64,000 bases of DNA from Octopus vulgaris (taxonomy: Eukaryota), in NCBI GenBank assembly GCA_951406725.2, contig OX597829.1, positions 9,300,001-9,364,000 on the forward strand, given 5' to 3'. Within the stretch, counting starts at the first letter, position 1. Each line of letters starts with the position of its first letter. Positions 10,197 through 52,662 of this stretch are shown here, one piece after another. The notes beneath the pieces were generated by a model. That model had not been told where the DNA came from. It saw only the letters and a list, made by a program, of their open reading frames with translations, and made no database searches. The position numbers and the translations under genes are program-made.

Positions 10197-10581
10197 CTTC
10201 AAAAGTCTTATTGAAAAAAAAAGAAACAAAAAAATGGAGGATTTTATCCAAAGAATGAGATGTAAAGCTTATTTCTTTGACACCAAACAATAAATTAACA
10301 GAAACACATTATGGCTTTAAATCTTCTAAAAAAAAAAACACCACCTATTTCGGAATTAGAAGATTTTGAAAAAGACATTTTGAAGCTTATTAGAAGAATA
10401 AAATTCCGCAACGTTAACAATCAATTCCAGTGAGATATGAAGTAAAAAATCAGAAACATTAAGAACTCGGAAAAGATCTTCGTAAACTCTGACAAAACAA
10501 AAAACTATACGCGGTTGACAAAGATGTTTAGAAAGGTGTACTTTGGAATAGCATTACAAACACCCACAAAAAAAAGATAAC

Positions 10582-11613
10582 ATGAATTTATATAGAGTGA
10601 CGAACTTGGAAGCAAGAAGAATTGGTAACAATCTTAAAGTTAGTGATAGGATAGAATACCTCTCCCCACACCAACCCTTTATTACCCTGAAGGACTACAA
10701 AGCAAATTTCAATAGAAACCCTAAATGTAGACTAATTAACCCAGCTAAACCTGAAATAGACGTTATTAGCAAAAGTATTTTAGTTTCTATTTTAAGCAGG
10801 TTAAATAGTGAATTAAATTTGCAGATTTGGGGAAATAGCAAGCCAGTGATTGATAGGTTCAAAGGAATTAGCCATAAACACAACTGCAAATTTACTCAGT
10901 TCGATATTGTCGATTTTTACCCGTCAATATCCAGGCCTTTACTTCTTAAAAAATCAGACTTCGCAAAGCAGTATGTCAACATCGATAACTCGGATTTAGA
11001 TGTTATCTTGCATGCAAGAAATCTCTCTTTTTTTTACGATGATTCCACCTGGGCTAGGATTCTCTATCCAATGTACCGATGGGGGAATTTTATAAGGGCG
11101 GTGTTGTGTATGTTTATAGAAGCTTATATTTTGCATAATTTGCATCCAGAATTCCCTTTTATAGATGCAGGATTATTATGCAGGGATGACGGTCTTATAG
11201 TCACCCATCATTTAAACGGCCATGTGTTAGATAAACTTAGGACGAATCTTATTACTTACTTCCAAAGAATTGGCTAACAGATAATGATAGAAAGAAATCT
11301 TAATAAGGTAGATTTTTTAGATTTTAATTTAGATTTGCAATTAGATAAATTTAAACCTTACCGTAAGCCCAATGATAAGAGTGTTTTTTTATATATCAAC
11401 AAAGAATCAAATCATCCGCACGTAATTCTTAAGAACCTAGTTAGTAATATAGGAAGGCGCATAACATCCATATCTTCAGACGAGACAGCGTTTCAAAATG
11501 TTGCGCCGTATTATTGTAATGCATTAAGTAGATTCTCGGAGAAGAGCCAGTATAGTGAAACTGCTTCTAGCAATAATAGACCAATTAAAACCAGAACTAG
11601 GAAAGTTTTGTGA
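10582..11613 (+). pseudogene. Penelope-like reverse transcriptase pseudogene
   Basis: ORFs 10582-11277 and 11284-11613 are in the same frame, split by a stop; RT motifs as above. Confidence 0.9.
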
Positions 11614-24139: not shown

Positions 24140-24509
24140 ACATCATTATGTTTTCGTTGAGAAGTGTAGAGAAGAGTTCCAGATAAGGGTAGGTAATAAG
24201 TGATTTCTTCCGGTGTATATATATATATATAAACCAGCTTAGAGAAGAAGAAGAAACGAAACGAAACGAGACGAATCGAATCGAATCGACGCGAGGGCGC
24301 TCAGTCATACAATAGTGTAATAAATAAAATATATGCATACATACAAACATATATGTACGTACCTACATCTACATGTATATATACATGCATATATAAATAT
24401 ATATACGTGTGTACAGGACACCACAAATAGACGAAAACGTAAAAACAGCATGGAACGGACCATTTTTTAACAACGAAAAAACAGAGTACAGGACACCTAC
24501 ACAAGGTAA

Positions 24510-24606
24510 AATCCCCTTCATCAGCTGTCCCTAGTTCAACTCCAGCGTGTTTCGAAGGTGAGGACAGAACACGTCTCGTCGAACTAGTCCTTCCTGCGAA
24601 AGAATT
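24510..24606 (-). ncRNA. Candidate non-circularly permuted hammerhead ribozyme, family 1 copy A
   Basis: AAUUCUUU cgcag GAAGG a CUAGUUCGAC gaga CGUGU U CUGUCC uca CCUUC GAA ACACG cugga GUUGAACUAG GGACAG CUGAUGA AGGGGAUU. Confidence 0.7.
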
Positions 24607-25281
24607 AAATAAAATTCCTTTGCAGAGGGGTAAAAACAAGGAAAAAATGTGACAGAAACAGGACGTAAAAACAATACAATTAAAAACAAATACAAAATAA
24701 ACATACAATTACAAAAAATACAGTACAAGAAGGAATAGAAACAGGACAGGAAAACAAATAATGAGGGCCTATAAGCCTAGACCAGGAAAAAATTTTCACG
24801 AGCGCAGGAAGAAAAATGTTTACTTGAAGAAGGCCGCCAGCGAAAGGAAGTTCGTCCACCCGGCTGTGAGAGAGATGAGGAGGAGTGAGAGAGAGAGCGA
24901 GATAGAGAGGAACGACGCCAAAGAGGGTGAAAGAAAGAGAGAAGAAGGAGTTATAGAATTTCGCGTCATAATTATATATAAAAAAACAGCTTAGAGAAGA
25001 AGAAGAAACGAAACGAAACGAGACGAATCGAATCGAATCGACGCGAGGGCGCTCAGTCATACAATAGTGTGATAATAAAATATATGCATACATAAAAACA
25101 TATATGTACGTACCTACATCTACATGTAATATACATGCATATATAAATATATATATACGTGTGTACAGGACACCACAAATAGACGTAGAACTCAACGAGA
25201 AACGAAAAAGTAAAAACAGCATGGAACGGACCATTTTTTTTAACAACGAAAAACAGAGTGCAAGACAACTACACAAGGAAA

Positions 25282-25370
25282 AATCCTCTTCATCAGCTGT
25301 CCCTAGTTCAACTCCAGCGTGTTTCGAAGGTGAGGACAGAACACGTCTCGTCGAACTACCCCTTCCTGCG

Positions 25371-25373
<3 letters not shown>
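25282..25373 (-). ncRNA. Candidate non-circularly permuted hammerhead, family 1 copy B (5' closing strand truncated)
   Basis: Same core, stems I, II and III as 24510-24606. Confidence 0.65.
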
Positions 25374-25999: not shown

Positions 26000-26066
26000 A
26001 GTTTGTGTACATATAAATTCGAACGGAAGCGCAACGAAGAAGCAAGTGGAGAATTCACACAACGCT

Positions 26067-26151
26067 GCTGATTCCTCGTCAGTTATCGCCCCAGGGTCCT
26101 TACAATTTCATGCCTTCATCGATAATATTGTTCACATTTGGTGGCGTCAGC
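26067..26151 (-). ncRNA. Candidate non-circularly permuted hammerhead, family 3
   Basis: GCUG ACGCC a cca aauguga ACAAU A UUAUCG augaa GGCAU GAA AUUGU aaggaccc ugg gg CGAUAA CUGACGA ggaau CAGC. Confidence 0.6.
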
Positions 26152-26280
26152 GATGAGAAGCTACTGGGTATAGCGAACCTATATATATATATATATTAAT
26201 AATAATAATATGACAACAAAAGAATGAATAAGACCTCGATATTACGTAAATAAAGGAATTTATCTATAAAAATAATATTC

Positions 26281-26411
26281 GACAATTAGTTGTTTGTCAT
26301 AATAAAACTCAGAGTTTCGGATACCGGGGCTGAAGTTTTCTCCATCATCTCATCAGACTTCAGCCCGGCATTCGAAACTCTGAGTTTTATTACGACAACC
26401 AACTAATAGTC
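26281..26411. mobile_element. Palindromic pseudo-LTR fragment with truncated type I hammerhead on the minus strand (26300-26356)
   Basis: Arms 26281-26335 / 26357-26411; minus strand CUGAUGA-gaugaugg...ccgguaucc-GAAA-cucugag-UU. Confidence 0.65.
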
Positions 26412-39680: not shown

Positions 39681-40173
39681 TATATCATATGGATAGCGTA
39701 TATTTTTGATTCTTGGACTAGTTTTTAATCATACTGTTGGATTTGTTTCTTATTATGAATGATTTATTCCACATCGCAAAGTTTTTGTATACATTTCGAT
39801 ATATTTCTTAAGAAAAACCTTCGACTGTTATATACTAATATTATTTTCTTGTATAGGATTCTGCTTTTATTTCATTTCATTTTATTGTATTTTATGAACC
39901 CAGTTTGATCGTTTAATTTATAGATAATTCGATATAGGGTGATATATTTTGCATGTCTTTTATCTAAATTTTATTATTATGCACTCAGCAATTTTTAAAA
40001 ATAATGTTGTTTGTATATACGTCAGATCCTAGACATGTTTTTATGTGAATATTTGTATTGGCATGCATATTTATTCGTATACATGCTTCTATGTATATGT
40101 GTAAGTGAGCGTGTATATTTATACTATACCTACATACATACATACATACTTACATACATATATATATACATAC

Positions 40174-40239
<66 letters not shown>

Positions 40240-40403
40240 TCACACACGTATATATATATATATATATATATATAAAGGAATGTAAGTGTACGTACGCCGT
40301 CATATGTATATAAAAAAGGAATACAAAAATGGGACAAGAACGCAAACCATACAGACAGACGATACAAAAGAGGAACAAGAAAAATCACGGACGGGCCATT
40401 CGA

Positions 40404-40498
40404 AGTTTTCTCTCCTCAGTCGAGTTCCAGATTATCTTTGCAATTTCGGCTGGTTATACTCGAGATTGCTCCAATCTAGTCAGCTCCAAGGCAAAACT
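40404..40498 (-). ncRNA. Candidate non-circularly permuted hammerhead, family 2
   Basis: AGUUUU gccuugga GCUG a CUAGAUU gga GCAAU C UCGAGU auaac CAGC c GAA AUUGC aaagau AAUCUGG a ACUCGA CUGAGGA gag AAAACU. Confidence 0.68.
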
Positions 40499-41030
40499 AA
40501 GCCAAGACCATTAGATTCCTTGGAAGAAATCAGTGAACGTATTTGAAAACAAGGACAGAAAAAAAACGGAGACACGGTACACAAATACAAATGCAAATAA
40601 CAGGACATAACAACAGGTGTCTTTCGACTAAGAACGAATTGAATTAAGTTGGCGTGTATGAAAATGAAGCCTTATGGCAGGGACATAAGAGTTGACAGGT
40701 ATGGGGAGGAATATAGATGTTGCAGAGATGGTAGTCGAACCAAGAAAGAAAGGTCAGGCTTGGCTGAACACTGGTCACGTGGGGAGAGAGAAGAGAGATA
40801 AAATCATTAATGATTTTACCAGGGGTTCAGCGCGGAAATGAAATTTTACGAATATTTTAATAATTATATAAATAATTATAACGAGATATTGGTTGTAAGC
40901 GTCTCCACGAGCTGGAAAAATAGACGCCAAAAGCCGGTATTACCACCTTAAAAACTCCGAAAATAAATATTTCTACGAGTGTGTATGTATATTTGCTGTA
41001 CGATGATACTGTTCGTAAATACTATGAAAG

Positions 41031-44289: not shown

Positions 44290-44827
44290 GACAGTTTAAA
44301 CAGTGCCTAGCGACCCGTAACCTCCACTTAGCTATGTACTTTCGATATGTTGACGACATTAAGCTTGTCGTGAAATGTAATAATAATACAGACACAGAGA
44401 TAGACTCTCCACTAAATGAAGAACAGGTGATGACAGCTATACAACACATAGCTGACTCTATTCATAGCAGTATAAAAGTTACCGTGGACTACCCCAGTAA
44501 TAGATTACCTGTCCTAGATATTGAGCTGTGGATGGAAAATACTATGATTAACGGAACTGTTAAACCCTGTATACTCCACTCACACTATTGTAAACCTATG
44601 GCTAATCCACTGGTAATCCGTAATGATTCAGCAATGTCGAGTACTACCAAGCTCAACATCCTGGTGGCAGACTTAGTTAGAGTAATGAGGAATGTATCTC
44701 CACTATGCCAACCACAAGAACGACAACAACACATCCAGCACTTCATATTCCGAATGCAACGACCAAGATACACACACTATTACAGAATCAGAGTGTACAA
44801 AGGAGCGAAAACAAGATTCGAACGCAT
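44290..44827 (+). mobile_element. Penelope-like RT C-terminal/thumb fragment (different family from 10.6 kb)
   Basis: YFRYVDD, IKVTVDYPS, RLPVLDIELW, HYCKPMAN, SAMS...KLNIL. Confidence 0.85.
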
Positions 44828-45278
44828 TCTAAGTTACGGTTCAGTTCAGTCCATTATCAATGAAAATTTGGATATGAAGCGCGTGTCTGCCACGTTTTTG
44901 CCAAAACTGCTTTCAGCTGACCAAGAAGACACTCAGGTTTCAGTTGTACAAGATCTCCTTGACTGTGTCGAGAAAGATGAAAACATTTTGAAAAACTTTG
45001 CGTAGGCCTCTGAGCAAGTATAGCCTCGCTTTTGGCAAAATTTGATGCATATTCTCTCTCTCAACTTTCTCTGTCATTATCGATGAGATGATCACACGCT
45101 ACATACGTTTCTTCCAAGCATTAGTGTAGACAGTAGAAATGCACTACAACGTTAAAATTTGTGCACATGCACAACAGTGTTCAAGGTCAATTTGTGCCAA
45201 GCAGCTTCACTTTACGCTTTTTAGCTTCGTTACTTTGGCAACAGTCCGTATATTTATTGATCAGACCCACGCGTGTAT
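44828..45278. mobile_element. Rearranged mariner relic: internal part on + (44828-~44997), 5' end with TIR on - (~44997-45278)
   Basis: + strand LSYGSVQSIINENLDMKRVSATFLPKLL; - strand MTEKVE..ICIKFCQKRG and ggtctgatcaataaatatacggactg TIR-like end. Confidence 0.8.
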
Positions 45279-52564: not shown

Positions 52565-52662
52565 TTGCCGCCGGCGGCGCCACCAGTAGAGTATTTAGTA
52601 TTATCGGTTAGGCACGAAATTACGGTTGACCCACTAGACGATAACTGATGAGAATTTGGTAA
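52565..52662 (+). ncRNA. Candidate non-circularly permuted hammerhead, family 3-related
   Basis: UUGCCG ccggcg GCGCC a ccaguag aguauu UAGU A UUAUCG guua GGCAC GAA AUUA cgguugac ccacuag a CGAUAA CUGAUGA gaauu UGGUAA. Confidence 0.6.

Follow-up and report, generated by a model that had tools for sequence, protein, structure and literature searches.

A predicted hammerhead ribozyme opened within its core, in a Penelope-type repeat of an octopus genome

The question raised by this locus is whether a complete set of hammerhead components in an unusual strand order forms a ribozyme, and through which helices the chain would have to run. The components occupy positions 24606-24510 on the minus strand of the window, the 64,000-nt stretch of DNA analysed here, and with its extra helices the full motif extends over 24513-24630(-) (Table 1). 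We consider it probable that this is a split-core hammerhead of the order IV'-(hairpin VI)-II-V-III'-UH(cut)-I-II'-GAAA-III-V'-I'-CUGANGA-IV, in which the strand ring of types SGC and CSG is opened between A9 and G10.1, and that it resides in a Penelope-like element (PLE). The core CUGANGA, the GAAA and an NUH site are present, stems I, II and III surround the core with covariation and a G10.1-C11.1 pair, and contact between stems I and II would be provided by the covarying helix V, a role assigned by analogy with type-SGC. In the window copy stem III is CGUGU/ACACG, the site is GUU, stem I is CUGUCC/GGACAG, stem II is GAAGG/CCUUC with the G10.1-C11.1 pair and helix V has 10 bp. The order is none of those of types I, II and III (CGS, GSC and SCG) and reads S-G-C with a split C. 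The sequence-only reading had listed these components, called their order a non-circular permutation and predicted the cut site; the components and their coordinates are confirmed on the minus strand, the order is supported by strand coordinates and covariation, and the sequence agrees with the predicted position of the cut. The interval 24500-24620(-) excludes IV' and half of VI, and the predicted energy fold of a comparable fragment sequesters CUGAUGA.

Table 1. Positions of the predicted ribozyme, its carrier insertion and related copies in the window
Feature	Position	Strand	Remarks
Helix IV, 5' strand CCCCU	24626..24630	-	pairs with 24517-24513; 92% paired, n=48 copies
Hairpin VI	24594..24625	-	96.5% paired, n=48; abuts helix IV' and G10.1 with zero linker
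Stem II, 5' strand GAAGG	24589..24593	-	G10.1 = 24593; 3 pairs altered on both sides, 10-11/30 rows
Helix V, 5' strand (stem I-stem II interaction helix)	24578..24587	-	two-sided change in 4/7 counted pairs
Stem III, 3' strand, with U16.1 (24569) and H17 (24568)	24568..24573	-	predicted cut 24568/24567; covariation, 5' truncation pile-up
Stem I, strand 3' of cut, CUGUCC	24562..24567	-	both sides changed in 5/6 pairs
3-nt linker UCA and stem II 3' strand CCUUC	24554..24561	-	C11.1 = 24554
GAAA (G12-A15.1) and stem III strand CACG	24546..24553	-	GAAA itself 24553-24550; 48-copy alignment
Helix V, 3' strand	24531..24540	-	48-copy covariation
Stem I strand GGACAG and core CUGAUGA (C3-A9)	24518..24530	-	CUGAUGA = 24524-24518; sequence, covariation
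Helix IV, 3' strand AGGGG	24513..24517	-	immediately 3' of A9
Whole insertion, 1.5 tandem units of 772-nt repeat, without RT	24232..25373	-	flanked by (TA)n runs
Optional 3' tail, 81 nt	24232-24312	-	within insertion
Upstream ribozyme copy, 5'-truncated	25285..25373	-	without IV' and 5' arm of VI; 772 nt upstream
F3 copies, decayed, stem I UUAUCG/CGAUAA	52545-52665; 26065-26160	+; -	plus copy, predicted cut 52600/52601
F4 copy, stem I UCGAGU/ACUCGA, core CUGAGGA	40400-40520	-	predicted cut 40464/40463

For the family of the window copy (F1), pairing was assessed in an alignment of 48 full-length copies picked from about 90, with truncated and near-duplicate rows left out. The six-helix model (IV, VI, II, V, III, I) is 94.2% paired across these copies, two-sided changes occur in 13 of its 34 pairs, and the covariation score of 0.279 (0.163 shuffled) is reached by none of 500 shuffles; slid controls bring pairing down to 39.5-48.5%. 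As the copies are related, individual cells are not independent events and cell counts are inflated, so that the subfamily is the useful unit. The alignments show that predicted stems I, II, III, V and VI covary and that the predicted helix IV does so across families, which includes the two-sided changes in the helix V that the earlier reading had proposed as a bridge between stems I and II. Hairpin VI has a stability of -8.3 kcal/mol on its own, carries one U-A to C-G change in 15 of the 48 copies and fills the gap from IV to G10.1 without a linker in F1, F2, F3a and F5, while F4 has a short linker in its place. Helix IV is GACCCU/AGGGUC in the sister family F5, reaches 10 bp in F3 and is weak or imperfect in most F2 copies (1/32 perfect).

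The extra helices are also where the sequence-only reading needs revision. Closure of the ends between A9 and G10.1 stands, and the strands given for helix IV do not, as AAUUCUUU/AGGGGAUU is 86.5% paired with 251 of 500 shuffles as high and no covariation. The 5' strand of that pairing is the 3' arm of hairpin VI, and the true partner of AGGGG is the CCCCU at 24630-24626, beyond the coordinates of the earlier finding. Because that helix IV pairing was wrong, the two three-way junctions built on it are likewise unsupported; in their place, stems I and II meet helix V in a single three-way junction, and helices IV and VI widen the core junction. With hairpin VI placed between helix IV and G10.1, the chain does not run directly from A9 to G10.1. 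Pairing of upstream GCAGGAA with downstream UUCCUUGU as a further helix was set aside unscored, hairpin VI and helix IV accounting for those bases.

The predicted split-core ribozyme is present in five families and thousands of chromosomal copies in the 2.8-Gb genome of the window, where copies 98-99% identical to the window motif occur genome-wide (40 of 1622 candidates scored). Pattern searches, which fix some bases by design, yielded 1866 F1 matches with a looser pattern against none for the reversed pattern, 566 F2 matches against 3 in the control, 90 F3 matches against 0 and 726 F4 matches against 0; F5 was discovered beside one locus (40 of 2715 candidates scored). The looser F1 matches comprise at least five subfamilies with differing stems. 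Across the five families the core bases and the NUH site (GUU, GUC, GUA, AUA, AUC) are conserved while the stems are wholly different. Within the window, a descriptor of the order III'-UH-I-II'-GAAA-III-I'-CUGANGA matches at 24524, 25296, 26082 and 40419 on the minus strand and at 52645 on the plus strand, and these five matches compare with 3 in 100 dinucleotide shuffles and none at strict settings. The F4 copy of the window lies in a host repeat at about 40150-40800, and its G10.1 position appears mutated. Elsewhere in F4, a subfamily at loci L062, L096 and L179 has the stem I UCAAGA/UCUUGA and an altered stem III, which are more compensatory changes. A long inverted repeat at 26307-26388(-), part of a dispersed repeat, whose loop contains CUGAUGA and one of whose arms contains GAAA, gave no hammerhead parse. 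A metagenome pattern scan for the motif returned 0 matches, and contigs from four sequencing runs (four organisms or samples) cover the stretch, showing neither ends nor strand.

Since stem II is invariant within F1, its 3' strand has two candidate partners, the upstream GAAGG from which the earlier reading had built the stem and the GGGG after A9. With the latter, the active form would be an ordinary type-SGC hammerhead (A9, an extra A, and GGGG pairing with CUUC) and the upstream GAAGG pairing an off state or switch. Pairing of GGGG with CUUC is possible in 97% of F1/F5 cells, an extra base after A9 has precedent in the available parts of two papers (PMC3705267, PMC10085705), and the S-G-C order and UCA linker are those described there for HRIMA-1 (PMC10085705). 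However, this pairing has no two-sided change and is matched by 188 of 500 shuffles, its middle two pairs are G-U in 44 of 109 F1/F5 cells, and the duplex is weaker than the upstream one (-2.6 versus -4.6 kcal/mol) and competes with helix IV (-7.4). F5 decides between the candidates in favour of a predicted stem II formed with the upstream strand: in 19 F1 and 11 F5 rows GAGCA/UGCUC stands in place of GAAGG/CCUUC, exchanging A-U for G-C, G-C for C-G and G-C for A-U in three of five pairs on both sides. The upstream stems of the remaining families (F2 GACACC/GGUGUC, F3 GUGCC/GGCAC, F4 GGCUGG/CCAGCC) have no possible downstream counterpart, 0 of 83 F2, F3 and F4 copies offering at least 4 Watson-Crick pairs. 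For the 5 nt before GAAA, an upstream partner with at least 4 Watson-Crick pairs is best in 75/82 F1, 25/32 F2, 16/26 F3 and 23/25 F4 copies, the best partner lies directly after A9 in 1/82, 0/32, 0/26 and 0/25, respectively, and perfect 5/5 pairing in a downstream control window is absent from all four families. The upstream stem II is thus supported, and an ordinary type-SGC active form is very improbable. A chance parse of a repetitive element could draw on the shortness of the motifs, the AT-rich genome and the unremarkable minimum-energy fold of the fragment (z -1.68), but is refuted by the near-zero shuffle and reversed-pattern controls, by covariation in the copies and by the by-eye recurrence of the fold in other phyla, in the consensus records available, and we give it almost no credence.

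A second group of observations concerns whether the conserved fold cleaves. Hammerheads use G12 and G8 in acid-base catalysis and leave a 2',3'-cyclic phosphate and a 5'-OH, and Mg2+-dependent cleavage after GUU would be expected to yield these same ends here. Cutting of the RNA at the site should leave many reverse transcripts that stop immediately 3' of it. The offsets of F1 5' ends at (TA)n from the cut, read by eye at 99 loci from the first 100 of 184 rows, are -19 to -1 at 9 loci, 0 to +14 at 58 and +15 to +41 at 32 (p ~1e-12), and a separate F1 set shows the same trend (23/28 loci). For F4, tested in a narrower window without a downstream bin, 30 of 48 5' ends fall at or past the site, 9 of them at 0/+1 (p 0.002), with a second peak upstream of the cut (10/48 at -10/-9). 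The truncation peak could also arise from stalling of the reverse transcriptase (RT) at the structure, and microhomology with TA is a further candidate cause. A fold that is conserved yet does not cleave, or that needs a protein or dimerisation to do so, would serve as an RNA handle for the RT/endonuclease. The majority of genomic copies run through the predicted cut site, which favours such a handle, and in the published passages available metazoan PLE hammerheads cleave poorly in vitro (PMC4209133), while for the Poseidon PLE PAc hammerhead cleavage is dispensable for insertion in vitro and no RNA-seq ends are found at the site (Frangieh 2024, PMC11167929). Against it, the catalytic positions and the NUH are all kept in five families with unrelated stems, stems I-III are of full length and accompanied by the interaction helix, and the truncation peak starts at the predicted bond. 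A non-cleaving or assisted handle is therefore unlikely, though a stronger competitor than either the ordinary type-SGC form or chance.

In the preferred split-core fold, helices IV and VI would stack, as both share one unbroken strand, such that A9, where the chain passes into IV, and G10.1, where it comes out of VI, are brought together at the nick in the manner of the crossover of a perfect four-way junction. A standard core would then form, in which stems I and II are tied to each other by helix V, as they are in type-SGC. Helices II, III, IV and V span the cut, and the ends would consequently stay together after cleavage, favouring re-ligation or circles.

The putative ribozyme is situated in a non-coding, (TA)n-targeting Penelope-type repeat. 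The insertion in the window begins with a unit truncated at its 5' end and continues with a complete one of 772 nt, and the F1 element has the pseudo-LTR partial tandem, the 5' truncation and inversion, the optional tail and the microsatellite target that mark PLEs in the available passages of Craig et al. 2021 (PMC8557442) and Frangieh et al. 2024 (PMC11167929). At 30 loci inspected by eye, 14 3' ends carry the tail, 14 are without it and 2 end otherwise, the two fixed points lying 81 nt apart. The 5' ends are variable and some are inverted (e.g., an inverted 5' piece at locus L007). At locus L074 (G000:C1:25674993) the 5' junction has a short II/V leader stretch repeated three times, which suggests template slippage at the ribozyme. 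The non-coding tandem units, with the 772-nt tandem in the window and same-strand motif pairs 831 and 824 nt apart on contig C1, are also those of non-LTR retrozymes, although the type I hammerhead that these carry in each unit is absent from the element of the window. No RT-like frame, and hence no RT plus GIY-YIG ORF, is seen in the 772-nt unit, which makes the F1 element non-autonomous, and no RT ORF is linked to F1 among the 70 of 79 RT matches examined.

Other Penelope-like sequences occur in the same genome. A PLE ORF near locus L008, of the P0001 family, was considered as that of F1 and rejected as a neighbouring insertion that shares only the microsatellite in 19 loci; no rearranged motif was seen behind the P0001-family ORF. 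This family has 150 scored matches throughout the genome, many with frames of about 899 aa. An abundant young PLE family, seen at L091:2754-5167, has many open frames of about 899 aa and frequently occurs in tandem or inverted; this ~899-aa PLE family is a possible helper for the non-autonomous F1 element. Open frames resembling Penelope-like RT fragments are also present in the window at 10552-11274(+) and 44292-45002(+). For the element itself, a ribozyme in the pseudo-LTR would release unit RNAs, with 772 nt from one cut to the next, from tandem or read-through transcripts, and a Penelope-like RT/endonuclease would copy these RNAs into (TA)n; processing of tandem or read-through transcripts has likewise been proposed for PLE hammerheads in the available text of PMC4209133.

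Among known hammerheads, type-SGC (HRIMA-1, PMC10085705) is the closest in the passages available, having the same S-G-C order, conserved core, short I-II linker and joining helix between stems I and II. The stem I/II end is alike in both, with one spacer base and an interaction helix abutting stem I, and the UCA linker is also found in SGC-1 (from oligo sequences, PMC10085705). In contrast to type-SGC, the window motif has both the interaction strand and the 5' half of stem II relocated to its 5' end, so that block C is split; in type-SGC this block is intact, with the stem II strand 0-2 nt after CUGANGA. Helices IV and VI are additional, and the setting is a chromosomal retroelement rather than a metatranscriptome RNA. 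The published SGC descriptors, as available, need CUGAUGAG or CUGAUGAUG and are not matched. The window motif would thus work like type-SGC and yet is no member of it, being opened between A9 and G10.1 and failing these descriptors. With type-CSG, represented by two metagenome sequences (PMC10085705, in part), it shares the strand ring, opened at A9/G10.1 and not at the stem III end. The PLE pseudo-LTR hammerheads (Cervera and de la Pena 2014, PMC4209133) and the non-LTR retrozymes (bioRxiv 10.64898/2026.07.22.740005), in the portions available, similarly have the ribozyme in the flanking repeat, partial tandems and a non-coding derivative, and the 772-nt unit falls inside their reported 51-972 bp, but their hammerheads are type I, often minimal and dimer-dependent, whereas the window motif is pseudoknotted with long stems.

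Insertions at the A9/G10.1 step are known on a smaller scale. In the parts of the literature available, one extra base is tolerated there in CChMVd (PMC3705267) and HRIMA-1 (PMC10085705), the extra A of CChMVd slowing cleavage moderately (PMC3705267), and small core insertions are listed that in some cases cripple hammerheads (Perreault 2011, PMC3088659). The insertion in the CChMVd(+) hammerhead with A10 is one base (PMC3705267), where the window motif has two helices plus a break in the strand. Variants 'containing additional helices' are mentioned in a 2026 paper (PMC13725137, in part), and text passages of PMC10162972, which that paper cites, and of two other papers contain no core-inserted helices. 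Precedent for helices between A9 and G10.1 was not found in the passages available, and full-text searches of openly accessible literature turned up neither a split-core hammerhead nor Naiads with permuted hammerheads. A comparison with Rfam gave no match at the gathering score, sub-threshold matches at E<=10 all being unrelated. The predicted fold is a real variant of the hammerhead class, undescribed in the literature searched. In the available text of Eckert et al. 2023 (PMC10085705), blocks C, G and S are assumed uninterruptible, giving six orders of which SGC, CSG and one GCS are validated; apart from the GCS, which is bacterial, none of these has a known genome as its source. The predicted fold would break the assumption of indivisible blocks at the A9/G10.1 step in thousands of chromosomal copies, and would bring to animal chromosomes the non-circular forms that, in the same passages, come from environmental sequence only. 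As standard descriptors and Rfam miss the fold, counts of animal ribozymes would be too low, and the insertion point in the core would be useful for ribozyme engineering.

The F2 family connects the fold to the Naiad PLEs, of which the consensus records and text considered below are the portions available from Craig et al. 2021 (PMC8557442). Naiads are reported there without canonical hammerheads, eight being flagged HHR_half_core, and the cephalopod Naiads are described as long inactive. They resemble the element of the window in (TA)n targeting, pseudo-LTR tandems, inverted 5' pieces and the optional tail, while the F1 family of the window has no ORF. By sequence match, F2 corresponds to the 3' ends (3' UTR) of the Naiad_Obim and Naiad_Ovul consensuses, a match to published octopus Naiads that makes an octopus the probable host. 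The F2 motif lies in sense behind RT fragments at 3 of the 30 top descriptor loci and, among 40 additional RT loci, at 11, where each strand also gave one spurious match. This linkage to Naiad RT is seen for F2 and was not found for F1 in the 70 of 79 RT matches examined. The RT fragments ahead of F2 carry GIPMG and YxDD motifs, and a Pfam scan of four decayed RT/EN fragments gave no significant family.

Naiad records of the Craig 2021 supplement, as far as available, were parsed by eye around CUGANGA places, covering nearly all 32 places for three CUGAUGA contexts and the first 18 places for each other core word. The entire fold including IV and VI is seen in three Acropora records, Naiad-2_Movir (Morbakka), Naiad_Plae (Pomphorhynchus) and one record of part 9, with weaker fits in Naiad_Bfor (Beroe; very short stem I) and Naiad_Esco (Euprymna; mismatches). 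The consensuses with the split-core fold belong to octopuses, to corals and a box jelly, and to an acanthocephalan, the weaker fits aside. Among the nematode Naiads (Naiad_Parc, Naiad-2_Nbra and neighbours, supplement parts 13-16), five parse as intact type-CSG with an interaction helix. Several arthropod, bivalve and hemichordate records have no such fold among the places screened, and the fold is thus not universal in Naiads. For the puzzle of Naiads without canonical hammerheads, taken as PLEs that may not need them, a candidate answer is offered, in that the split-core fold may supply the ribozyme that seemed 'missing' from a large group of transposable elements in invertebrates. The 3' part of Naiad-1_Movir resembles a permuted-order twister consensus (CAGAGGG ... 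CCGGUCACAAGCCCGG), and from this twister-like stretch Naiads may swap ribozyme classes.
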